Shown: positions 1,060 through 61,546 of the stretch, piece after piece
How positions within the stretch are numbered: position 1 is the stretch's first letter
Layout: every line of letters starts with the position of its first letter
Assembly: GCA_030324005.1 (NCBI GenBank)
Contig: JARDVH010000042.1
Span: 88,805,867 to 88,869,866, forward strand
Direction: 5' to 3'
Length of the DNA stretch: 64,000 nt
From: Negaprion brevirostris
Lineage: Eukaryota
Made by a program: the position numbers and the translations under genes
Notes under the pieces: generated by a model
Databases searched by the model: none
What the model was told of the DNA's origin: nothing
What the model saw: only the letters and a program-made list of their open reading frames with translations

Positions 1060-2200
1060 AAAATAATCAACTTTTCTCAGCTTTCACATTCTGTTTTCTC
1101 AAAAGCTTGTTTCTTGCTCATTATTTTGTGTCCTCCTCCTGCAGTTTTGACCATTTGCTGGGTCTGTCTGTCTGGTGATATTTGCTGTATTTCTTTGATA
1201 CCGTCTGTTGTTCTCCCTTGACACATCACGCTAGTCCCAATGCTGATCACAGCAAATGGCACAAGTACAGTCCTTAGGCGTTCCAGTAGATCTGGGATTT
1301 GTAAATTAATGTTACTGATTAATCACAAAATTCACTGGCAGGTGGAGAGTCTAACAAGCAGGTAATGGTTTACAGTAAATCCTTTTGACGGATGGGGTGG
1401 GAGGGAGGTGGGGTAGTTTTAGTACCCAAGAAAGGATGGATGATTAAATAAGTTAATTTTTACCTTCTGAGTAAAACCTGGTTCCAAAATGCCCATTTCT
1501 GGGTTTAATTGAGACGTGTTTGGACCCCTACGAAAAAGCTTCTTGGTACAGCTCAGACATTCATTAGTGCAGGCAGGCAGGTGGACAGCGCAGCATTTAG
1601 GAGACATGAATGAGATCTTTCCATACTGAATTCTACTTAGATTTAAATTTAACATCCCTGNNNNNNNNNNNNNNNNNNNNNNNNNNNNNNNNNNNNNNNN
1701 NNNNNNNNNNNNNNNNNNNNNNNNNNNNNNNNNNNNNNNNNNNNNNNNNNNNNNNNNNNNCAGCTATTTTTCAAAGTCAAACCAGGCAAGTTGATTCTGA
1801 TTGGTGAAGGCATTGTCATGGGATTGAACTCGGGAATGGAGTTGCCCAAGCTTTTGGTAAATTAATCTTACATCCCTTCAGCAGCATGGTGAGATTTGAA
1901 CATCTGTCTTAGGAGCGTTAGGCCAAACCCCTGAACAACTAGTCCAGTAACACTATCACTATTCTTTTACCCCTGCTAGATACAATTTTGAAGGTTTCTT
2001 TTCTTATGATTGGTTATATATATATTGTTTTAATCATTAATTAGTTTTTCTGAGAAAGTCACCGTTTTTGGATGTTTCAGATGTTTCCCCTCTAATCTCT
2101 TTTATTCTTAGCTTTTGGTTCCTGTTTGCTTTGATGTGACCCAGGATCAAAGACAAGTTTTTCTTTGGATGATCAACTGGAGCCTAATTATACAGCTACA

Positions 2201-25904: not shown

Positions 25905-26086
25905 AAAAGGAAACAGGTTATCTAGTCATTATACATTACAGCATGTGGAGATTTCTATGTACAGATTGGTAGCCTTGTTTCCTACATTACAACAGTGACC
26001 ATATTTCAAAATAGCTAATTGGTTGTAAAGAGCTCTGGGGTTTCCTGATGTCTCAAAAGGCAATATTTAAGTGCAAGACTTTCTTT
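25905..26086 (+). mobile_element. Deu-domain SINE (SacSINE1-like) 3' part
   Basis: TTTCCTACATTACAACAGTGAC...ATTGGTTGTAAAGAGCTCTGGG...AAAAGGCAATATTTAAGTGCAAG. Confidence 0.7.
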
Positions 26087-41330: not shown

Positions 41331-41956
41331 GTGGATTCTGTAATTCTTTCCTTCAGAATCTGTGGACGCTATGAGAATTGAAATATTTAATACTGTTAGA
41401 CATTTTAGATTTTTATAAGTTAGTGTATCGATGGACATGGAGATCAATCATTTGAATGACATAAGGATTTCAAATGTGGATTTCGCAATTTGTGGTTAAA
41501 ATTGCAACATAAATTAGTTCTAGCAATAAACAATTGCAGTTCAGGTAAACTAAATGATAAGTAAACATTCTTGTCAGGAAATTGCGGGTTGGTGACTGTG
41601 AGCGTGAGGTCCAATCCCAGTTGTGTATTGCTTTTCCATTGTTATGTTCAACTGTATTCGCTGTCTAAGCCAACAAATTGGTTTTCACTGGCCCTAGAAG
41701 GGTATGTCCAATTTCTATGTTCTACCTGGTGATCTAGGCATGCTGTTTGGAAGAAGGCGTAGCCCCAGGGTATTTCATAAATCTGTTCCTGCAAGCAGTA
41801 CAAATCTACAAAGGAACAATGGCAAAGTTAAAGCTAATGCTGGAACAGCTCTTTACTTTCTCTTGTTGGTTACTCCTAGCTACCTCCATCTGCTGTCCAC
41901 TGTCTGCAGCTGAAAGGGAAGAAACAAAATGCCCCCAGGGAACAGCAATTGCTGTA

Positions 41957-42225
41957 ATAGTCATTTGGTAGTACTGCTGAAAAAAGTTGAAACTTTTTGT
42001 CTTGCACTCATCGCAATACTTTGCAAGAATACCGATGCAAGGGGAAAACCATTTATAGTTTGAGAAGAAAGTGCTGATTGGCAGGTGGACACTGGTAGAA
42101 GCGCTGCCATGGGAACTGCACGAGAAGACTGACAGCTAAGTGCCAAACATTGCTTGAAATTTAAACCAGGCAGCATGACCTCACTTGGTCAAAGCATTGC
42201 CTTGAGGAATGAGTCAGTGAATGTG
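41957..42225 (-). mobile_element. Hammerhead-bearing element family C
   Basis: Reverse-complement homologue of 44365-44616; reverse strand GATGAGTGCAAGACAAAAAGTTTCAAC; terminus ATAGTCATTTGGTA shared with 54127. Confidence 0.75.
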
Positions 42226-42351
42226 CCTGTTTCAGCTCAACAACAGCCAATGTGTGTACCTGTTCTTTCTGTCTGCAAAGAACAGGGTCCTGAGTATTAA
42301 TGTATGCGGCTTCCAAATGTGCCACACTGAGCCCGACTGACAATCTTAAAA

Positions 42352-43965
42352 TTGATTTTGATTTGATTTATTATTGTCACATGTATTAGTATATAGTGAA
42401 AAGTATTGTTCCTTGTGTGCTGCACAAACAAAGCACACCGTACATAGAGAAGGAAAGGATGGAGTACAGAAGGCAATGTTACAGTTCTCGCTAGGGTGCA
42501 GAGAAAGATCAACTTCATGCAAGGTAGGTCCATTCTAAAGGCTGATGGCAGCAGGGAAGAAGCTGTTCTTGATTCGGTTGGTGTGTATCCTCAGACTTTT
42601 CTATCTTTTTCCCGACAGAAGAAGGTGGAAGAGAGATTGTCCAGCGTGATTATGCTGGCTGTTTTCCCAAGGCAGCTGGAAGTGTGGACAGAGTCTGTAT
42701 GATGGACTGGGCTTCGTTCACAACCCTCCTTAGTTTTTTGTGGTCTTGGATAGAGCAGGAGCCATACCACGCTGTGAAGGAACCAGGAAAAAATGCTTTC
42801 CATGGAGCATATGTAAAAGTTGATGAGATCAAAGCAGATATGCCAAATTTCCTTAGTCTCCTGAGAAGGTAGAGGTGTTGGAGGGCTTTCTTAACTACAG
42901 TGCAGGTATGGGATAGGTTGTTAGTGGTCTGGACACCTAGAAACTTGAAGCTGTCAGCCATTTTCACTTTGTCTTTGATGTAGACAGGGGCACATCCTCC
43001 ATTACGCTTCCTGAAGTCGATGACCATCTCCTTCATTTTGTTGACATTGAGGGAGAAATTCTTGTCATCGTATTAGTTCATCAGATTTTCCATCTCTTTC
43101 CTGTACTCTGTTTCATCGTTGTTTGAGATTTGACCCACTACAGTGGTGCCATCAGGAAACTTGAAAATCGAGTCGGAGGGGAATTTAGCCACAGTCACAG
43201 GTGTATAAGGAGTATAATAACGGGCTGAGGACACCCCCTTGTGGGGCAGCAGTGTTGAGGATGATCATGGAGAAGGTGATGTTGCAATCATCACAATACT
43301 TTGTAAGAATACTGACACAAGGGGAAAACCATTTATAGTGTATGAGAAGAAAGTGCTGATTGGCAAGTGGACACTGGGAGAAGCATTGCCATGGGAACTG
43401 CACTAGAAGATGCCTATCGTTACTGATTATGGTCTATGGGTTAGGAACTCTAGGATCCAGTCGTGAAGGGAGGAGCCAAGCCCCAGACCACAGAATTTGG
43501 AGATGAGTTTGTAGGAATAATGGTATTGAGCTGTGGTGAATAAATAGAAGTCTGACATAGGTACCTTTTGTTATCTAAGTTTTCCAGGGTTGAGTATAGA
43601 GCCAGGGAAATGGCATCTGCTGTGGACCTGTTGCAGTGATAGGTGAACTGTAATGGGTCCAGGCAATCTGAGGCCAGAGTTGATCTGTGCCATGATTAGC
43701 CTTTGAAGCACTTCATAATGATGGATGTCAGAGCCGCCAGTCATTAGTCATTCAGACATGCTTGGCTTTTCTTTGATACCGGGATGATGGCCATCTTTTT
43801 GAAGCAGCTGAGGACCTTAGATTGATGTAAAGAGAGGTTAAAGATGTCTGCGAATACCCCTGCCAGCTGGTCCACACAAGATCTGAATATCTGTCTGGTT
43901 ACCCTATCCAGGTCAGTCAATTTCCATGGGTTGACTTTTGAGAAGGCTGCTCTGATGTCTGCGAT
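42352..43965 (-). mobile_element. Rex1/Babar-like LINE, decayed RT region
   Basis: DQLAGVFADIFNLSL..CFKKMAIIPVSKK; TAAPQGGVLSPLLYSLYTCDC; KEMVIDFRK..DSFKFLGV..KKALQHLYLLRRLRKFG; (TTGAT)n tail at 42352. Confidence 0.9.
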
Positions 43966-44364
43966 GGTTATCAACATCATTCTTAGCAAGGTATAGACCA
44001 TACCCAACCAGCTGGCATGCTCAGAACATAGTGTCCAACATTAGGTGTGATTCTACAATTGAACAATATTTGCTAAGTAATCATTAGAACTATGCTGATA
44101 GCCGATTTATGATGGGCAGTCAGGCTCAGGTGAGGTGCATTTGCGTGTACTGATGGCTACATATAAGACCATAAATAGGAACAGGTGTAAGCCATTTAGC
44201 CCCTCATGTCCGTGCTGCCATTCAGTACGATTGTGGCTGATCCAACGTCCACTTTCCTGCTTTTTCCCTGTAATCCTTGATTCCTTTACTGTTCAAAAAT
44301 CTATCTCAGCTTTTAAATGTACACACATTGCACCTGATTCAGCTGAACAAAATAAAGTGACAGC

Positions 44365-44616
44365 CATTTGCTGACTCATTCCTCAGGGCAATTCCTTACC
44401 AATCAAAGTTGAACTGCCTGGTTTAAATTTTAAGCAATTCTTGGCAGTTTACAGTCACTTGATGCATTCCCCATGACATTGATTGACAAGTAGACTCTGG
44501 ATGAGGTAATCAGCACTTTCTTTTCATACAAGTTGTTGTCTTCCTTGTTTTGGTATTTTTGTAAAGTATCCTGATGAGTGCCAGATGAAAAGCTTTAACA
44601 TGTACCTTTTCAGCAA
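44365..44616 (+). mobile_element. Hammerhead-bearing element family C
   Basis: CTGATGA-GTGCCAGAT-GAAA-AGCTT at 44571-44595; body homologous to 41957-42225. Confidence 0.75.
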
Positions 44617-45035
44617 TTTCATTTATATAGCAACTTTAACATATCAGGGCCCTAAGGCCTCTCATTGGAGTTTACCAAATGTAATTTGATAGTGAGATAG
44701 ATAAGGTATTAGCACAGGTAACCATAAACTTGGGCAAAAAGATTATTTTTTATGTGCATTGCTAACAATAAGCTAGAATTGGAAGAGCACAGAGATTTCT
44801 TAGCGTTTTAGGGCTGGAACGAGTTGGCTATGAAGAGGATCAAGGTCATGGAGTGAACTGAAAACAAGGATGAGAATTTTAAAATAGAATGTTGCTGGAT
44901 TGACAGCTGTTGGGGCTGATGGGTGATTAAGTCTTTGTTTTAAAATGAATTCAAGTTGGTGGAGAGGACGAGGGCAAAAGATAGGAGGCTTGAAGCTGGC
45001 CACGGAGCATTGGAACAGTCAACTTTAGAGGTAAC
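44617..45035 (-). mobile_element. L2 LINE 3' fragment
   Basis: TTTCATTTATATAGCAACTTT tail; reverse FKILILVFSSLHDLDP. Confidence 0.7.
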
Positions 45036-45596
45036 CCTTTTTGTCAATGTTGCTCCATAACTGCTGGCTAAGCTATGTACAGGAACTGAATATGTTGACT
45101 CATCTTCCAATTCTACTGCTTCTGTATCTGCACGTGTTCATTCTGACGTCCCTGCTGTTAACTTTAGCTCTTGCCTTCGATTTCCTGTAGGTAAAAATAT
45201 CTCCTCCATTTCAGTAAATTCATCCAGCTTTTAACCTTGAAAAATATCTAGTCATTTCTACTTGTTCAGCAAAAATTGAATGAATCAATCATGACTTCCT
45301 TTTTATTGAAATTAGCATTTTTAATAATTTCTGTATTTGTCGCGAAGACTTACTTTTTGCTTTCACTCCAAATTAGGCAGCATTAATGCCAAGTCCACTG
45401 TTACATAATGACTTTGATCATTTAACAATCCAGTCTAGTATTTCAGCTAATCTCGTGGACCTTTACCACATCTCTTATTTTAGCTCATGTCGGATCTATC
45501 TCGCTACTTTTTAGAAATCACTACCTTGCATGTCTTTTGCTCGCTACTCTGTAACAAATCACACTGAAAAACTGCTCCCACTCATACATTATAGAG

Positions 45597-45812
45597 CCAT
45601 AGAGGTTTATACATGGAAACGGGCCCTTTAGCCTAATTTGTCTATGCCATCCAGATTTTACCACTAAGCTAGTCCCCATTGCCTACGTTTTGTCCATATC
45701 CCTCTATACCCATTGTACCCATGTAACTGTCTAAATGCTTTTTAAAAGACAAAATTGTACCCGCCTCTACTACTGCCTCTGGCAGCTCGTTCCAGACACT
45801 CACCACCCTCTG
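45597..45812 (-). mobile_element. CR1 LINE 3' end, little diverged, runs into gap
   Basis: QRVVSVWNELPEAVVEAGTILSFKKHLDSYM, canonical CR1 ORF2 C-terminus. Confidence 0.9.
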
Positions 45813-47689
45813 NNNNNNNNNNNNNNNNNNNNNNNNNNNNNNNNNNNNNNNNNNNNNNNNNNNNNNNNNNNNNNNNNNNNNNNNNNNNNNNNNNNNNNNN
45901 NNNNNNNNNNNNNNNNNNNNNNNNNNNNNNNNNNNNNNNNNNNNNNNNNNNNNNNNNNNNNNNNNNNNNNNNNNNNNNNNNNNNNNNNNNNNNNNNNNNN
46001 NNNNNNNNNNNNNNNNNNNNNNNNNNNNNNNNNNNNNNNNNNNNNNNNNNNNNNNNNNNNNNNNNNNNNNNNNNNNNNNNNNNNNNNNNNNNNNNNNNNN
46101 NNNNNNNNNNNNNNNNNNNNNNNNNNNNNNNNNNNNNNNNNNNNNNNNNNNNNNNNNNNNNNNNNNNNNNNNNNNNNNNNNNNNNNNNNNNNNNNNNNNN
46201 NNNNNNNNNNNNNNNNNNNNNNNNNNNNNNNNNNNNNNNNNNNNNNNNNNNNNNNNNNNNNNNNNNNNNNNNNNNNNNNNNNNNNNNNNNNNNNNNNNNN
46301 NNNNNNNNNNNNNNNNNNNNNNNNNNNNNNNNNNNNNNNNNNNNNNNNNNNNNNNNNNNNNNNNNNNNNNNNNNNNNNNNNNNNNNNNNNNNNNNNNNNN
46401 NNNNNNNNNNNNNNNNNNNNNNNNNNNNNNNNNNNNNNNNNNNNNNNNNNNNNNNNNNNNNNNNNNNNNNNNNNNNNNNNNNNNNNNNNNNNNNNNNNNN
46501 NNNNNNNNNNNNNNNNNNNNNNNNNNNNNNNNNNNNNNNNNNNNNNNNNNNNNNNNNNNNNNNNNNNNNNNNNNNNNNNNNNNNNNNNNNNNNNNNNNNN
46601 NNNNNNNNNNNNNNNNNNNNNNNNNNNNNNNNNNNNNNNNNNNNNNNNNNNNNNNNNNNNNNNNNNNNNNNNACAAGCCCTATTCGCATAACCTCATGCA
46701 TTTACCCTAGCTAGTTCCCCTGACACTAAAGGGCAATTTAGCATGGCCAATCCGCCTAACCCGCACATCCTTGGACTCTTCACGTCCACTTGATTGCCCT
46801 TTCCCCATAACCCTTGATTCCCATACAGATCAAAAAATCTATCTCAGCCGTTACAAAATAAACTGTGGATCATGCTTAAAAGCTACAAAGAACGCCAAGA
46901 TGTGCAGATCACTGACATCATGGACTTATTTTTGACTTGAGACATTGCTATAATGTAATGCCATAATGTGCATTCCCATATGCCAATTAGCAAAGAAGTA
47001 TGACAATTAAAATGTATGGAACAGTAAAGTTGCTGCACAATAGTATTTACTTATTTCAGCCGTGACCCTTATCTGGTGACGCAGTGAGTAGATGCAAGTA
47101 GGACTTTCATCTGTAACATGTCCAGCTCTCCTAGTGCACAAACCCAGAACATAATCTTCCTTTTTAAGCAGTCATGTGGTCAGTCACTTGAACACTGAAG
47201 GCTGCCCTCCCATGTCATTCGTTCCAATCATGTTGCATGCTATTTATATGAGACTTTATTGTTACAGTAAGTAAGTAAAATCTCCCATCCAGTTAACAGA
47301 TGGTATATGTTGTATTTTTTAACTATTTATCAAAAACAGCCAAAAGAGCAATTGAAACACACTGTTCAAGGTTCATAACAATTGCAACATGAGCATTTTA
47401 CCTATTTCTAACCTTGTGTGTGTTTTTAAAATGGGAAAGACAAGATCTGATCATTGTGTTTAATTCTTAGGTTGGGATTAAGTGGGATTTAAAACTATTT
47501 ACAGTTTCAGAGATATCTTTGGTGATTGACCTTAGCTAATCATTTTAGCTGTGACTTTGGTTACATGATGTTTAGTTTGGAGTTTCAAAATTTGCTGTTA
47601 GATAATTTTCATTAGGAACAAATAGAATTACATGATGTTTATTGCTGTTAAGAATTATTATGGTATTATCGTGAACAGCAACATGCATT

Positions 47690-47970
47690 TCCTGCAGAGC
47701 TATTGTCTCAAGGAAAAGGAAGGATCAATCTTGAGCAATATGGTAGAATGACTGCTGGTTAAAAGCGTGGATAAAGATGTGTTTTGAAAAGACTTTAGAA
47801 AGGGATTGAAAAACTGAGCAGGGAGGGTTAAGGTTGAAAACTGTCTGGTGTTGGAATGAAGGGTGGGTTGGATGCACAAGAGGCTAGAGTTGGAGGTCTC
47901 AAAACTATGGAGAGGCAAGGCTATGGAGGGGCATGTAAATGAGGATTTTGAATGCAGCATTTGGGGACCA
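47690..47970 (-). mobile_element. Decayed L2-like fragment
   Basis: Purine-rich + strand with GGGAGGGTTAAGG...GATGCACAAGAGGCTAGAGTTGGAGG...GCTATGGAGGG, similar to 59640-60430. Confidence 0.5.
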
Positions 47971-48388
47971 ACAGATAAGTGGGCATGTAGAATGCAGGCT
48001 GTTTGATACCTGGAGTGGAACAGTTGTGTTGGGTGGGGTGGAGTAACTAATCAGGATTTTGGTGGGGAATAGTCCACCCAGTTATCACATATTTGGCAGA
48101 AGGATCCTGAAACAAGTACAGGAAATGGCTTTGCAAACATTAATTGATCCAGTGCAACTTCATTGCAGTGTTAATGTAAGTCTACTTGTGACACCAATAA
48201 ATTAAACTTAACTGCCCAGTACATCTGAAAACTGGGAACCAATATGACAGTGGCTGTATTGATTTTAGATGTGGCACTTCAAGCCCAGAAATTGATATTC
48301 ATTATGCTGGATGTTTGCTGACTGTGGCCTCCATCAAGTTAGAGGATATTGGATAAGACCCACCATAAAAGTTGGGTCTGACGTTTAA

Positions 48389-48572
48389 GATAGAATCCCT
48401 ACAGAGCAGAAGGAAGAGGCTATCTGGTCCATCCTGTATGCACCGACTCCCCAAAAGAACATCACTTGTTCGCTATCCCTGTAACCCTTTGCATTTACCA
48501 TGGTTAATCCACCTAAGCACTCTCTTCTGTGCAATTCAGCATGGCAATCCATCTAACCGGCACATCTTTGCA
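48389..48572 (-). mobile_element. HE1-type SINE 3' half
   Basis: ATAGAATCCCTACAGAGCAGAAGGAAGAGGC...AATCCATCTAACCGGCACATCTTTG. Confidence 0.75.
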
Positions 48573-50909
48573 TCTAGAAACATACAAATACTTGAATTAT
48601 CTATTATGGGTAACCCATTTAATTGAAACAGTTTTAAGATAATGGTTATCAAAAAATTCAAGCTAGCAAGAGGTTTTGTGCAGTTGGGATTGAGACGCAT
48701 TTTTGAAACAGAATAGAGGGAACTTAACACTGTTAGATACTATATTTGACCTGAAAGTGTTTGATGTTTACTGGAATGAAAAGGGTTCTATTCCCAAACA
48801 TTACCATAAGTATAAAACTACACAATCAACTTTTAAAACGGTCTATGCTATCCAAAGCATATTTGTATCAATAGCAGCCATCAAAATTTTTTGTTATGAG
48901 TATACATAATAATAAATGCTTGCCTCAAACAGCATGTCAGAGAATGTGGGCATTACACAAATTTACTGTCATCTACATTGTCTTAAAGTTTAACCTCCAG
49001 CCTTGTGGAAGACTACAAATTAATTTAAATACAAAACACCATAATTGGTAGGCTAGGGGTTAAAGTTCCTAAAGATGAAACACTGATATACTTTCAAAAT
49101 GAAATAGATTATGCTTCAGAAGACCTGAAACAAATATCATTCAGCAAAACAGAACTTAGCAGCAACAACAGCAATCATAGACAACAGTTGCGTTTCAAAT
49201 AACAAACAACTATTAACAGAAAATGCAACAAATCCCACAAGGTGCTCGAAAGCAGTAAGTATATTCTATTTGTTTTCATGGATGGAAATACGTATTGTCG
49301 TCACAACAAGTTCAGCAGAGGTCAACATGCAGAACATTTGAACAATTTTCAAATACACGACCAGCAGTGCATTCCTTTGTCTTGTCAGGCCAAACATCAA
49401 CTGTGACAAAGAATGGCCAAATAACCTTTATTTAAGTATTTGCAGGCCAAGGTGCACTGAAGAAGGAAAGTGTGAGTTGATACATCAAAAGGCTGCAGAA
49501 TTGAAAATTATCCGCTGTTAGAGAATATTATTTGTGACTTTGATTTGGAGAATTTTGCTGTGAAAGAGGTTAAAATCCAAATAGAAAAATTCAAATGGGG
49601 ATTTGCAGTGATATGAAGCATTGATCTTTGAGGTAGCACCGTGTTTGAGAATCTTTTTGGGACTGGGATGACAGTATGCAAAAATGACGGACCTTGACCT
49701 TATTTTGACAGAAGGAGAGTAATGTCTGAGGAGAGCATGCCACTTCCAATCCCAGCTAGTATGGAAGTCAGGAAGGGAATTTGAATGGACAGCAGTTTGT
49801 TCATTGCATAGGAATACAATGTAATGTAGAAAATCACTCCAAAGACTATACAGATAACATGACCAAATACCAATTAGCCAGAAATCATCATTATTTTAAT
49901 TTTTCAACAGAACTACATCAGCTCAAATAAACATGGGTACAGGAAAACATTTTTCTCCCACACCTTCTGTAGAATAGGAAAAAAAGGCAACTTGATCAGT
50001 GGCTTCTCAGATCAAGATTAAAATGGAAAAAATTAAATAACTGCTGTGGGTTTCATTAGCATGACAGTTTTGTGTACAGTGTGATATATTACGATAAATA
50101 GTTTAAAATTTAGCTGTTAGCTATTATGCTTCAGATGTGATCGATTTGCCTTTGTACAGTTTCAAGTGCATTAATAGATATCAAGGAAATGTTCAAACCG
50201 AGCTTAATAGAAGCCCACATTACAACTATTCTGATCACTCCCCAATTCCCCATTTTAAAGTCCTTTGGTTTATTTCCCATTTCATATTGTCCTATGTTTT
50301 CTCCAACACTGAGGCAACTTGTGTTTTCTGAACTATTTTAGAATGGTGTGTTTAGCATGGAGGTGTACCGAAAGCTTTAAAAGTGGGCTGTTACGTGAAA
50401 GCTATGCAAACGTGAGATTGGAAAGCACCCATAAACGGGTCTTTCAAACATTTGGAGATTTTCTTGGCATTTATAGCCTAATATTTCTTTGCAGACTGAG
50501 ACAGTTAAATTACAGTTTTGCTTTTCAAAAAAAAATAATGACGTGAAAGCCTATGCATAATTGTACATCCAGTAATCCTTAAGTATCACAGACTTTCCTA
50601 TTTGGGAATTTTAATGTTTGCATGTAATTATTTCTTTAGCTTGCATTTATTTAATATACAAAGTAAAATGCATTCCAAGAGCAGTCTGAAGAATTATTTT
50701 AGTTAACGGCATTGTAAATATACCCACAGCAATATTCTAATCATGTTATATCAAAACCATTAATCTGTTTCATTCAAATGTATTTCTAATTTTGTGACAG
50801 CTAACCAGAAGAAATCTTCCTGAGAATTTTGGAAATACTGAACATGCAGAACTTCAAATAATTTCCTACCATGTGAATTATCGTTCGTTTTGGAAAATGT
50901 CTATCCAGC

Positions 50910-51330
50910 ATGTTTTTTTTATGCATCTGTAGGATTGCTGACGAGGCCACTGCTTATTGCTCATCCCCAGTTACCCTTGAAAAGTTGACAGGGAGAACGA
51001 CAACAATCCTTGTTGTAGGTGCACCCATAGTGCTGTTGGGCAGGGACTTTGACCCAGCCACAGTAGAGGAGTGGCAATATGTTTCCGTCAGGATAGTGTG
51101 TAACTTGATGGGAACTTGCAGGCGGTAGTGTTTCCATGTGCTTTTGCACTTGTTCTTTTAAGTGGTAGAGTTTGTGACTTTGGAAGAAGCCCTGCCAAGT
51201 TGCTGAAGTTATAGCAGCACCAGCAAGGTTCAACAACTGTAAACTACATACCAGTGGTGGATGGGATTCGGTGGGCTTCTTTACCCTGCATGGTGCCTGG
51301 TTTCTTGAGTGTTGTTCAAGTTGCAGTCAT
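50910..51330 (-). mobile_element. Decayed CR1-group LINE 3' end
   Basis: TTATTGCTCATCCCCAGTTACCCTTGA tail; TTTGACCCAGCCACAGTAGAGGAGTGGCAATAT. Confidence 0.65.
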
Positions 51331-51344
51331 CTAGGGGGCGGAAG

Positions 51345-51547
51345 TAATGGGGAAGGGCAGGGGAGGAGTGTGAAGCAGGTTGAGACAATTGGGAAGTAGA
51401 CTGAGGGTAAAGCAGGCCAGGATCATTGGGAAGCAGATAGGGAGAAGGATGAAGCAGGACGGGATCATTGGGAAGCAGAACCGGGAGGAGGGTGAAGCAG
51501 GATGGGATCACTGGGAAGCAGAGCAGGGGGAGGAGGATACAGCAGGT
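51345..51547 (+). repeat. Purine-rich minisatellite, ~43-bp unit, 4-5 copies
   Basis: Repeated GAAGCAGG...GGATCATTGGGAAGCAGA. Confidence 0.8.
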
Positions 51548-51639
51548 CAGATTCAGTTATACGACTGAAACTGATGTTTATCTGGGGAGAGCAGCCCGAG
51601 TTCAGTCCATGGCACCTCAGCTGTAAAGCGCGTGCATAA

Positions 51640-53280
51640 AGAAGATTGGTGAAGAAAAAGCGATAGGCGATTCAATAGTTCAGGGGACAGCTAGATATTT
51701 CTCTGGCTGCAGATGTGAACCAGGATGGTATATTGCTTCTCTGCCGCCACAAGTCAAGAATACAACTATTCAATGACAGAGAACCCTGACAGGAGAAGAT
51801 AAATACCAGCTGGTTGTGTTCCATGTCTGTACCAATGACATAGGCAGTAAGAGGGATGTGATCCTGCAATCAGAATCTCAATAGCTAGGTAAGAAATTGG
51901 AAAGCAGTATCTCAAAAGCATCCAGATTACACCTGGTACCACGCAGAACTGAGTAACGAAACTGAAGGATACAGCAGATTAATGTATTGTTGGACACAAA
52001 ATGTGGGAGATTCTTAGTAACAGTTCTGGGAGGGATGGGACCTATACACACTAGATTGGGTTGCATCCAAGCTGAGTTGGGACCAATTCTCTTATCGGGC
52101 AATTTATTGGGGAGACGGGGCTATGGGAACCAGGCGGTTGTACTAGAGGGAAACACAATGGTGCATACAAGGTGTTCATGAAAGATAGGAAGGAAAGGAG
52201 AAGGGATAGCATTTTTGATTAAGGAGGGCATTTCAGTACCAGAGAGTATTTCCCAGATGGATAAAGGACAAAATCTATTGGATTCAAGCTCAAGAACATG
52301 TAAAGTGCAGTTATGTTGCTTGGTGTNNNNNNNNNNNNNNNNNNNNNNNNNNNNNNNNNNNNNNNNNNNNNNNNNNNNNNNNNNNNNNNNNNNNNNNNNN
52401 NNNNNNNNNNNNNNNNNNNNGTCTGGATAATTAATATGGCAGAGAGAGGTAAGATTTTCTATAATGTGTTCAGGATAAATCTTTGAAATACTCACAGTCC
52501 AATGCACAGTTCCCATGAAAGAAAAAAGGCAAACAATCCAGAGACCCCGGTTCGCCAAGCCAGTGAGATTGCCTCCAGTGATGAAGGTGAAACAGAAAAA
52601 GTACACTAATGACTGTTAATATAATAGCACCAGGCAGAGTATGGAAGATTCCAGTGGGAATTGGGAAAGCAACAGGTAACTAACAGAACATGGAAGTCAA
52701 CAGATTTTCATCAGCATATAAAGTGAAAGGGGAATAAGAGGAGGAGTAGATCAATTTGAGACGTAAAAGGGGATTTTATGCATGAGGGCAGGGATACAAA
52801 ATTAATACTTTGCATCTGTCTTTACCAAGGAAGAACATACTGCTCAAGTCATTGTGAAAGAGGAGGTAATTCAGATAATTAAGGAAATGGTATTGGGTAG
52901 GTTTCCTGTTTTTTTTTTAAGTTGGTTAGACACCAGGATCAGATGCACTGCATCCTAGGATACTGAGGAAAGTAACAATGGAAATTGTGAAGGCACTGGC
53001 TGCATTTTTCTGATCTTTCTTAGGTTTGTGGGGTGGGGGTAGATTTCACAGATTCATGCTAATTAGGAAAAGAAGCAATAGTGATGTGAGGAGAGGGTTT
53101 TTCACGCAGTTCTGGAATGCACTCCCTGAGACTGTGGTGGAGGCAAGGTCAGTTAAGGTTTTCAAAATGGTATCGGGAAAAGGAAGGGGGTGGGACTAAC
53201 TGAATTGCTCCCTCGGAGGGCTCGTAGAGAGACAGTGGGCTTACTGGCCTCTTTCTGAGCTGTAGTCACTCTTGTGACCT
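51640..53280 (+). mobile_element. Internally deleted CR1 LINE: ORF1 esterase, ORF2 pieces, 3' tail
   Basis: ATAGGCGATTCAATAGTTCAGGGGACA = IGDSIVQGT (SGNH/GDSL motif of CR1 ORF1); endonuclease-like DRKERRRD.A.LIKE near 52180; TAATACTTTGCATCTGTCTTTACCAAGGAA; CR1 3' end TGGAATGCACTCCCTGAGACTGTGGTGGAGGC. Confidence 0.75.
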
Positions 53281-54126
53281 GTTGTATGTGGAAACATATA
53301 TCCTTCTGATTTTGTATTCAAAATTTTGAGCTATAGAATTACATAGAAAACTCATGTTTTTTCCACATTCATATCAAAAAAATCAAGTATTTGTGAGGTA
53401 CTAGAGGCACAAGAAAACTTGGATTCTGCTGTATTTAATACTGAAGCATCACTGATACTGGCTTGCTTAGAACATGAATAGTCTGTTGATTGAAACCATG
53501 CAAAGGTGACATTGGAAAGTCCTTTGTCCTGATCTGAAAAGGAAGTATTCTAGGCTCCATAAATTTAAGAAATAAAATGCTTTCCATAAATCCACAATGT
53601 ATGTGCACAATTTTCCCCTGTTCAGTTGAACTGGAGAGCAAGAATTCTCCTGTCCCATCTGCCATGGGAATTGTAAAGGGGGAAGGATGGGGGGAGATCA
53701 TGAAAAGGATCATTGACCTTGGGTGGGATTCTCCTGTTTTGCAGTGAGTGCAGGCCAGCGATCCCACCGCAGATGTGTGCTTCTGTATTGAGAGAAAGGT
53801 AATGATGCAGATCTGATTGCTAGAACTGTCGCAGATGGATTTGTGTCAGAGTGGATCAAAGCAGTAAATGTAGGACCAAAATCAGAATGGGCATTACATC
53901 TATTAAAGTTGATCATGGTTTTTTCCATATTGCGACAGTGATTCAGTGTAGCTAAATCTCTAAAATACTGTAAGGTTATATTTTAATAATAGACAAGCGT
54001 TCTGAAAACCACCCCCCTTCCCCCAAGTAATGGGAAATCAATTAGCAGCAGATGGTGCTTATCTTGGAGCTACTTACTCTCAGACAGTCATCCGGATGTC
54101 CCTTGATTTACTTACAATTATTATAG

Positions 54127-54350
54127 ATAGTCATTTGGTACAAAACTCACTGAACAAAGAGAAATGCTATCCAAGCTTTTCATCTTGCACTCAAAACAAT
54201 CAGGACAAATAATGCATTTCCTATGGCAACACTTCTACCAATCAGAATCCACTTCCGAACCAATCGTACTGTTCTCGTGCAGTACAAATTGTTGTTCTCT
54301 TTACAATTGGGCTTCTTGTGAATTGTCCTGATGAGTACAAAATGAATACA
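54127..54350. mobile_element. Hammerhead-bearing element family C with inverted ends
   Basis: Left: AAGCTTTTCATCTTGCACTCA[aaaca]ATCAGGACAA (minus-strand core, interrupted); right: TTGTCCTGATGAGTACAAAATGAA (plus-strand core). Confidence 0.75.
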
Positions 54351-56014
54351 ATTATTATATTAAATGTGACAGCTTTTCCTAAAGACTGGAGTTATTACAG
54401 TTCACATCTTATTGGTGAGTATTTCTCATGCTAATACTAGCACACTGTTAAGGTTGTTTCTGTGGTCCATAATTTCACCTTTTATGGTTTGCTGAAAATT
54501 AGGGAGATGGGGGCATTTGCTGACCATCCTCCTGCTGTAACTGTACTATTGTTCTCTTGATACCGCAGAAAAGCAAAAGTCAAATACTGTTGCAACTTTT
54601 TTTATTCTGAATGCGCCTTCCCCTTTTGAAGCGATTCTTCCAGGTGAGCACATATTCACTCCTTTGCAGAACTAAGCCAACAGGAAACAAGCTTGAATGA
54701 TTTATCATCACATACCTGTCTAAGGATAACCAGCCTTATTTGTTGGAACAAACTGCAGATGCTGCACTGGTAATGTCCATCTCTTTCAGATTTGATATAT
54801 TGCAACTAAACTTCATCCTTTCATCATCCAGTTCAGAACTTCAATTTGATTCATGCTCTGCTCATCCAAAACAACATAATATTTGTGTTGTGTAATTATC
54901 ACTGCTGATTAACATTAAGGAACCTCAGTAGTCAGAAATGAAGTCACGTTATTGATATTATCCAAGATTCTGGCTAGTGGATTGTAACTGATTTCACAAG
55001 AAAGTAGCAGCCAATGTACTGAAACAATCCATTCATAAAACTATTTTGTGGGTCAATTTTATTTATCAAAGCCTCTCTTGGATATTGTATTTGACCCCAT
55101 ATTATGTTATTTGTTATATGGAACCACTTGACCAGGCAACATTGCTGTAATTCGGAGCAAAATCTTGAGAGCAAAAAAAAGTAGAAGAATTATTAATTAT
55201 CCACTTTTTTCTTAATTAGATTCGTGATTATTTTAATATTTCCTGCCAGCCTTGGTTACTAGTTGTCCTGTATCTAGTTTTTAAAATTTATTTCCATGGT
55301 TTAGGATGATTAGAGACAAAACTCTTATTTGAAATAATTCATCGTCTTCAATTACTTCCCAGTTGACCTGACTCCCAAGGAAATTTTTTTTTCAAGGATA
55401 ATTTGGCAGTTGATTTTTTCCCAACTAAAATCTATCTTTTTGATATTGAGTAACTGAAATCATTCAGATCAAGGGGAGAGTGTATGGCTGGAAAAAGGGC
55501 AACCTTTTCATCTAACTCTAGGTTTCTCCAATATCTTCTTGCCTATTTTTGTAGTTAATCTAGAGGTTATTTGCAATTAATACCTTTGCCATTCTAAGTA
55601 TGTTTGCTCCTGCGTACTAAAAATATATTTTTTATAGATGATATTGTGCGTACAGAGGGAGAAAATGGGGGAGGGAGCATATATTAGTTGGAATTATTTG
55701 ATTCTTCAGCAAATTCTCTGGAATCCTTGCGAAAGAAGATCAGCAAAATCTCCTAATCATACCAACTAAGAATGACCATAGTGGGTTGGGGATCTTTTGC
55801 AACACCCTTCTAATCTGGTTACAATCCTGATCTTGGTTAGTGGATTAACAGTTTATCAATCCAAATTGGGAAAGATTATTTTCTGGACAAGTTTTCTCAT
55901 TATCCAGGGGGATTACCCTTAGATAAACTGAACCATGCCCTACCCACCCCAGTTCGCATCGCAACTATTTAAAAGAAAAGCAATTCGCAGATATTCTACA
56001 TTCAGCAAAAAAAA

Positions 56015-60614: not shown

Positions 60615-61546
60615 ATGTCTTAGGCCCAACCATCTTCAGTTGCTTCATCAAAACCTTTCTTCTATCATAAAGTGAGGATGTGCAGTCATCAGTGAACAAT
60701 GGGTAAAAGCAAATTACTGCGGATGCTGGAATCTGAAACCAGAAAAGAAAATGCTGGAAAATCTCAGCAGATCTGGCGGCATCTGTAAGGAGAGAAAAGA
60801 ACTGACATTTCAAGTCTAGATGACCCTTTTTCAAAGCTTTGACAAAAGATCATCTGGATTCGAAACCTCAGCTCTTTTTTTCTCTCCTTACAGGTAATGC
60901 TAGACTATCAGTGAACAATGTTCAGTATTGTTCGCAACTCCTCAAATACTGAAGCAGTACGTGTCCAATTGAAGCAAGACCTGAACAGTATCCAAGATTG
61001 GATTGACAAGTAGAATTTGAGCTACATGAGTGCTGGGCAATGACTACCTCCAACAAGAGAGGATTTAACCATTACCCTTTGACATTCAATGACATTACCA
61101 TCGCTGAATCTCTGATTATTAGCATCCTGCGAATTACCATTGGCCAGAAACTGTATTGGCCTAGTCATATAAAAACTGTGGCTACCAGAGCAAGTCAAAA
61201 GCTAGGAATCCTACAGCGAGTAACTTGCCTCCTGCAGGGCCCCGCCCCCCACAAGGCACAAATCAGGAACTTATTAGAATACTGTCCACTTGCCTGGATG
61301 AGTGCAGCTCAAACGACATTGAAGACAAAGTAGCCTGATTGATTACCACCTCTTCCACAAACATTTAATGCCTTAACCTCCAATGAATAGTGGCAGCCAT
61401 GTGTACCAACTACAAGTTGCACTGCAGGAACTCACCAAGGAATTAGGCAGCACCATGGTCACTGCCACCTTCTCAAGGGCAACTAGGGATGAGCAATAAA
61501 TGCTGGGCCAACCAGCGACGCGCACATCCCATATATGCATGAAAAA
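60615..61546 (+). mobile_element. CR1-group LINE RT and 3' end, interrupted at the catalytic motif region
   Basis: LGPTIFSCFI..., KQDLNSIQDWIDK, HIKTVATRASQKLGILQRV, KAQIRNLLEYCPLAWMSAA; tail CTCAAGGGCAACTAGGGATGAGCAATAAATGCTGG. Confidence 0.85.
60702..60906. mobile_element. Fold-back hammerhead-family insertion with 14-bp target-site duplication
   Basis: ATCAGTGAACAATG at 60688-60701 and 60907-60920; palindrome centred on TCAAAGCTTTGA. Confidence 0.85.

Follow-up and report, generated by a model that had tools for sequence, protein, structure and literature searches.

Hammerhead-like cores in Negaprion brevirostris DNA are very probably decayed relics of the 3' ends of an old Penelope-like retrotransposon

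Minimal hammerhead ribozymes are described in the pseudo-long terminal repeats (pLTRs) of Penelope-like elements (PLEs) from fish, lamprey, coelacanth, frog and reptiles, mostly as truncated single copies with low activity as dimers (Cervera and De la Pena 2014, PMC4209133). The Poseidon element PAc of Anolis carolinensis uses two internal priming sites and AT-rich targets, its tail is the start of its open reading frame (ORF), protein-assisted cleavage was shown for its motif, and its insertion in vitro was unaffected by ribozyme mutants (Frangieh et al. 2024, PMC11167929). Endonuclease-positive PLEs are reported to have tails and inverted 5' copies (Craig et al. 2021, PMC8557442), PLEs were present in all species studied in PMC4350176, elephant shark included, and a recent preprint describes elements of the Poseidon and Neptune types in five classes of vertebrates and pLTR-derived non-LTR retrozymes (LTR, long terminal repeat) in one chondrichthyan (Li, Clavereau and Pollet 2026, bioRxiv, 10.64898/2026.07.22.740005). 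Shark or skate was absent from the two supplement files of PMC4209133 that were searched, and searches of the literature for hammerhead with shark and for Penelope with chondrichthyan returned no description of the family reported here, with Repbase, Dfam and preprint supplements lying outside the comparison. We analysed a stretch of 64,000 nucleotides from Negaprion brevirostris (assembly GCA_030324005.1, contig JARDVH010000042.1, positions 88,805,867 to 88,869,866 of the forward strand), hereafter the window, in which an original prediction made from the letters alone had placed four copies of a short, ribozyme-carrying element. We conclude that these pieces very probably derive from an old Penelope-like retrotransposon, as 3' ends that are 5'-truncated and in part inverted, and that their decayed minimal hammerheads likely self-cleaved, weakly and as a dimer, when the element was active.

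All four predicted core strings are present in the window, and a family profile built from 30 genome copies recovered each of them (E 3.5e-73 to 2.5e-07), whereas the same profile run on three dinucleotide-block shuffles of the window as a control gave a single match, at E 0.024. BLAST within the window ties the cores together at 70–89% identity and adds pieces at 43282-43410 and 1770-1827. The family features are as follows.

41956..42241, minus: 5'-truncated copy with pLTR, decayed core (41984-42014; C3, U4 and G12 lost) and long tail (profile)
41986-42012, minus: hammerhead core, predicted string present (family profile E 3.3e-64)
42242..42358, minus: last Penelope ORF codons, where the GIY-YIG domain ends; 39 codons without a stop
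43279..43415, minus: pLTR fragment ending inside the core, inserted in a long interspersed nuclear element (LINE) (BLAST, profile)
43986..44165, plus: decayed GIY-YIG coding piece of the plus copy (DNA profile E 2.4e-38)
44317..44618, plus: ORF end, pLTR, core and short tail (BLAST, profile)
44571-44599, plus: hammerhead core, predicted string present (family profile E 3.5e-73)
54113..54125, plus: left copy of a 13-bp AT-rich target-site duplication (exact direct repeat)
54126..54213, minus: 3' arm of a fold-back, with core carrying a 6-base insertion, G at the cut position, then long tail
54172-54210, minus: hammerhead core with a 6-base insertion inside CTGATGA (family profile E 2.5e-07)
54214..54346, plus: inverted arm of the same fold-back, distal pLTR ending inside the core
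54323-54346, plus: hammerhead core that stops after GAA (family profile E 1.6e-26)
54347..54359, plus: right copy of the 13-bp AT-rich target-site duplication (exact direct repeat)
1767..1839, minus: family pLTR fragment without core (profile E 7.3e-10)

All four cores stand, but not as four separate copies: those at 54172 and 54323 are the two arms of one fold-back insertion (54126-54346), bounded by the exact 13-bp AT-rich duplication. The plus copy has CTGATGA at 44571-44577, GAAA at 44587-44590 and a predicted cut after 44596, with the conserved core letters intact and two helix I pairs broken; an unrelated insert of 150 bases (44166-44316) separates its pLTR from its coding piece at 43986-44165, for which the protein match is weak (best E 0.004 in a targeted search). 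On the minus strand, 42325-42242 matches residues 813-840 of an intact protein, P0002, at 53.6% (E 0.001 by tblastn over the whole window; protein profile E 7e-5). The copies at 41956-42358 and 43986-44618 lie head-to-head around a LINE fragment and may be a single insertion that was split later; no target duplication around 41956-44618 was seen by eye. That LINE fragment (42359-43985, minus strand) is decayed, with an RT-like (reverse transcriptase) translation and a weak PF09004 match (E 0.0036), and from its motifs we take it to be Rex1/Babar-like. The pLTR fragment at 43279-43415 is 89% identical to 42002-42128 and shares the defects of that neighbouring copy 1.3 kb away, dispersed copies being only ~70–75% alike, and by this resemblance it is likely a local templated insertion copied from the neighbour. 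A weak match to the core-plus-tail profile at 26009-26084 on the minus strand (E 0.066) is possibly another relic. The window copies themselves appear to be inactive relics, every core among them being broken.

The original prediction had noted the absence of any ORF and had pictured a separate non-autonomous element, and neither point holds. Coding remnants adjoin two of the window cores (42242-42358 and 43986-44165); upstream of 44365 the homology runs into a GIY-YIG-type reading frame and then into RT motifs, and the sequence behind the cut site translates as an ORF start that matches the N-termini of P0002 and P0017-P0024. The GIY-YIG-type frame gave 150 scored matches of 3337 genome candidates. 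The RT piece matched RVT_1 below the cut-off (E 0.013) and is 55% identical to the 842-amino-acid P0002, which itself matches RVT_1 at E 2.2e-9 and, at its C-terminus, GIY-YIG at E 0.0075, below the cut-off. Among 7999 scored candidates 2267 were relatives of P0002, which also matches window positions 42325-42242 and 115 of 187 loci, the latter almost from its first residue to its last. The family ORF, with RT plus GIY-YIG as its C-terminal domain, is broken in every copy seen and is colinear with P0002 over its length. A Pfam search with the 90-amino-acid endonuclease piece returned nothing, a PDB search with the RT piece only E values near 0.9, and by eye no cysteine cluster (Zn-finger linker) lies between RT and endonuclease in P0002; the motifs bear a resemblance to those of the Penelope/Poseidon clade, of which the family may be a member. 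Direct pLTR-ORF-pLTR units occur in four of 18 long stretches (L224, L230, L231, L233) and partial tandems in two (L229, L230), all of these units being broken or internally deleted. A candidate intact ORF, an open frame of 834 amino acids at C132, was rejected as an assembly gap (N).

An intact relative was found at L236, which is 72% identical to P0002 and has the same layout of ORF end, pLTR, core (261-286) and ATG (339). Further relatives with DNA were not found in viral contigs, and genome contigs gave one RT piece of 515 bases. The proposed link to PLEs is thus borne out by upstream RT/GIY-YIG coding sequence, pLTR-ORF-pLTR copies and colinearity with P0002: the family consists of relic ends of an autonomous element and adds a member to the published class of Penelope pLTR hammerheads.

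Searching the genome with 44365-44620 gave 1197 DNA candidates, of which the 40 scored showed 69–85% identity (the window itself aside). The ancestral core that had been reconstructed from the window copies stands, as its 25 fixed bases, with both CpG sites left free, have 450 exact genome matches against none for the reversed control, and the full 29-base form has exactly one natural copy. Copy number is very loosely estimated at ~50,000 (range 11,000-450,000), from one exact pattern match in 109 unselected cores, i.e. cores found without use of the core pattern. Median identity to the commonest letter per column is only 83% (85 copies), and the family is therefore old. Reciprocal CpG decay, as proposed, is seen both at site 1, before GAAA, and at site 2, the cut site. 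The 109 unselected cores have TG 65, CA 24 and CG 2 at site 1, and TG 47, CA 35 and CG 11 at site 2, while a hand count of the first 100 listed of the 450 matches gave TG 63, CA 19, CG 4, TA 6 and other 8 at site 1, and CA 37, TG 33, CG 16, TA 6 and other 8 at site 2. Since TG and CA occur at both sites in both samples, CG was ancestral at both for many copies. Decay at site 1 is one-sided toward TG (p 1.6e-5), the remaining five CpG sites spanning 36:19 to 34:52, and where both G12 and a CG at site 2 are retained (83 matches) the letter before GAAA is T in 74, C in seven and G in two. The simplest reading of these counts is that some active masters had U there, from which many copies may descend; a U before GAAA keeps G12 and forms a G.U pair, whereas CpA would destroy G12. 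A mutation context effect could also explain the lopsided site, and no subfamily column marks site 1 once the number of columns tested is allowed for.

By its layout the motif is a type I hammerhead, in which helix I comprises 4-5 pairs, the spacer is 9 bases long and a six-base palindrome would form helix III; it contains the CUGANGA, GAAA and UH elements of the minimal type I hammerheads of PLEs, in agreement with the original assignment. The spacer is nine bases in 83 of 83 matches, the core letters are complete in 24 of the 109 unselected cores, and core letters together with all helices are kept in only four, the three window cores tested there failing. Among 69 unselected decayed cores, helix I pairs 1-4 are paired in 68–89%. 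Helix III is AAGCTT in the family and AACGTT in L236, where loop III is ACGT in place of AGCT, and core letters and helix I are kept with one helix I bulge; that the palindrome is retained with other letters supports pairing between molecules. The tiny stem II of the original prediction is a short helix of one or two pairs across the spacer, and its second pair (U-A) is doubtful, being A.A in L236. The motif would have worked like a PLE minimal hammerhead. A spliceosomal intron retained in the pLTR is a further mark of endonuclease-positive PLEs; behind the cut site lie a pyrimidine tract and CAG, but these also read as ORF-start codons. The ATG created by TG at site 1 was considered as a start codon for a subfamily without a downstream ATG and rejected, CA often standing there. 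Separately, members of a subfamily with AAATG after the cut (L119, L126, L133 and others) have this ATG apparently in a frame other than that of the ORF.

Several results weigh against reading these pieces as Penelope ends with a once-active hammerhead. The genome yielded no intact ORF of this family, and of 25 fold-back pairs only four are flanked by an exact target duplication of at least 8 bp (control 0 of 25). Helix II has only one or two pairs, a third forming in 7% of copies, and the family lacks the several pairs and the extra base after A9 of the published helix II. In favour of the hammerhead, helix I pair 5 covaries between subfamilies (53/6/22/15, p 0.0008), but this amounts to one or two subfamily events, with T-T mismatches there in 22 of 96 counted. 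Also in its favour, uniformity is higher in core columns than in base-matched pLTR columns (0.906 vs 0.844, p 0.006), in a test that profile alignment can bias. Against it, nearest-neighbour energies predict a different minimum-energy fold, even for the intact copy, for which the hammerhead monomer comes to +2.9 kcal/mol and the double hammerhead to -9.7, with the best dimer at -21.3. Compared with shuffles, the sequence showed no folding signal (z-score 0.22). An Rfam scan of the window, with matches up to E 5 considered, returned no hammerhead; a decayed minimal form would be expected to escape it, and the result is not evidence either way.

Some of these points would suit a motif of hammerhead descent that is no longer catalytic here and is kept as a promoter, translation-start or protein-binding sequence, which we regard as unlikely. 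Such a motif would fit the 1-2 bp of helix II, the poor predicted energies, the origin of most copies from RNA uncut at the hammerhead site and the lack of effect of Anolis ribozyme mutants on insertion in vitro (PMC11167929), and the surplus of TG at site 1, which creates an ATG in frame as well, therefore need not reflect G12. Yet L236, distant and intact, keeps the core letters, helix I and a compensated palindrome, and the Anolis motif cleaves with protein help (PMC11167929).

It seems rather improbable that the family represents a hammerhead variant with almost no helix II, in which one G-C pair would be joined by a second four-base palindrome (UGCA; AGCU in L236) pairing between molecules, and selection on active masters would have kept G12 by CpG to TpG change only. 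The L236 spacer also has nine bases, with positions 2 and 5 swapped and still complementary, which is only a lead, as it concerns two families and a pattern noticed post hoc; when the same genome was searched for sister families in which loop II is compensated, three matches came up, none of them complementary. If true, the two-palindrome variant would assemble its ribozyme through two self-complementary contacts.

Insertion anatomy bears on a further alternative, that a distinct non-autonomous pLTR-derived element, similar to a short interspersed nuclear element or a non-LTR retrozyme, amplified on its own. The family layout is ORF end, ~250 bases of pLTR, hammerhead and then ORF start, which in the main subfamily lies 3 bases behind the predicted cut, so that the tail consists of the codons with which the next tandem unit opens. 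Many copies are short and pLTR-only: 120 of 197 cores begin inside the pLTR, 15 of the 197 in the core itself or no more than 10 bases away, and pLTR-derived retrozymes are reported from one chondrichthyan (10.64898/2026.07.22.740005), all of which would agree with independent amplification. Their 5' ends, however, are scattered over the whole pLTR, with 77 of 197 reaching its 5' edge, two window copies carry ORF remnants, and, with the number of columns tested allowed for, no subfamily column marks site 1. The 57 neighbouring pLTR pairs, a count that leaves out 19 split copies and includes ~4 head-to-head pairs from duplicate loci, comprise 49 head-to-head, four tail-to-tail and four direct pairs, one of the direct pairs being pLTR-ORF-pLTR; retrozymes are tandem non-coding units with a hammerhead each, whereas here direct pairs are few and ORF remnants are linked, with the reservation that gaps could hide arrays. 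We therefore consider independent amplification very unlikely. That the motif resembles a hammerhead by chance, within an ordinary repeat, is scarcely credible, for despite the missing Rfam match and folding signal it occupies the published place of Penelope hammerheads in both the family and L236, with a compensated helix III.

For the preferred reading, relic ends of a Penelope-like retrotransposon, the 3' ends of 189 of the 197 cores are informative, forming two peaks at ~25-34 and 51-57 profile positions past the cut, fuzzy by a few bases as ends of local alignments; 13 cores continue into the ORF. Loci found with an N-terminal query have an inverted pLTR upstream in 14 of 30, and 16 of 19 ORF-start junctions cross the hammerhead site uncut. 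Long copies starting at the cut site were looked for and set aside, since only one of the 19 junctions (L045/L218) fits and two have no profile match; copies made only of tail would be below the search size. At that locus (L045:1823 = L218:3029) a long copy starts at the ATG 3 bases behind the predicted cut, beside an inverted arm, and could derive from cleaved RNA.

By analogy with the Anolis element, the element protein would nick AT-rich DNA and start reverse transcription internally at either of two places, ~25-34 or 51-57 positions past the cut, with RNA not cut at the hammerhead as template; synthesis would usually stop early, or switch to give the inverted 5' arm. The hammerhead would need a second copy to form helix III from its six-base palindrome, with cleavage probably helped by protein. 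As it stands the significance is small, one old family being added to a published class. The family offers a clean example from vertebrates in keeping with the Anolis model, with a tail made of the ORF start, two 3' ends and an uncut template. Should a hammerhead whose helix II has one or two pairs prove active, it would widen search descriptors, which at present would miss it.

Two other repeats were seen in the window. A 113-base fold-back at 60782-60894, with an Rfam MIR6457 match far below the cut-off, is formed by a different abundant repeat (947 genome candidates; 42 matches from the 40 scored), two arms of which stand head-to-head. It has a hammerhead-like stem and GAAA, but TTTGACAA replaces the first core box, and it is probably a second Penelope-type family. 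Four loose, purine-rich direct copies of ~40 bases each lie at 51366-51542.

Compared with described systems, the shark family shares with the hammerheads of PMC4209133 the CUGANGA/GAAA core, open helix I, short palindromic helix III and pLTR position, and like them occurs mostly as single truncated copies with some close opposite-strand pairs; it differs from their consensus, in which helix II is longer and A9 is followed by an extra base, in its 9-base spacer with one or two pairs and no extra base. Short helix II variants may already be described in Lunse et al. 2016, as cited in the review PMC6765202. With non-LTR retrozymes it has in common a pLTR-related sequence with a type I hammerhead, but those are defined as non-coding tandem repeats, and the shark copies are solo or head-to-head, many with ORF remnants (10.64898/2026.07.22.740005). 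Strong 5' truncation, partial tandems, an adjacent inverted 5'-truncated copy and an optional tail of 30-40 bp are all features of the PLE insertions of PMC8557442, from which we found no difference except the family's own sequence. PAc is likewise similar in its ORF with RT and C-terminal GIY-YIG, the hammerhead at the pLTR-ORF junction, a tail formed by the ORF start, two preferred 3' ends, AT-rich targets and an uncut RNA as main template (PMC11167929). The PAc ORF, however, starts in stem II, 26 bases before the cut, while the likely start codon of the shark family is 3 bases after it; reverse transcription of PAc begins 111-118 bases into the ORF, as against shark family ends ~25-57 positions past the cut; and, unlike PAc, the shark family is decayed (PMC11167929).

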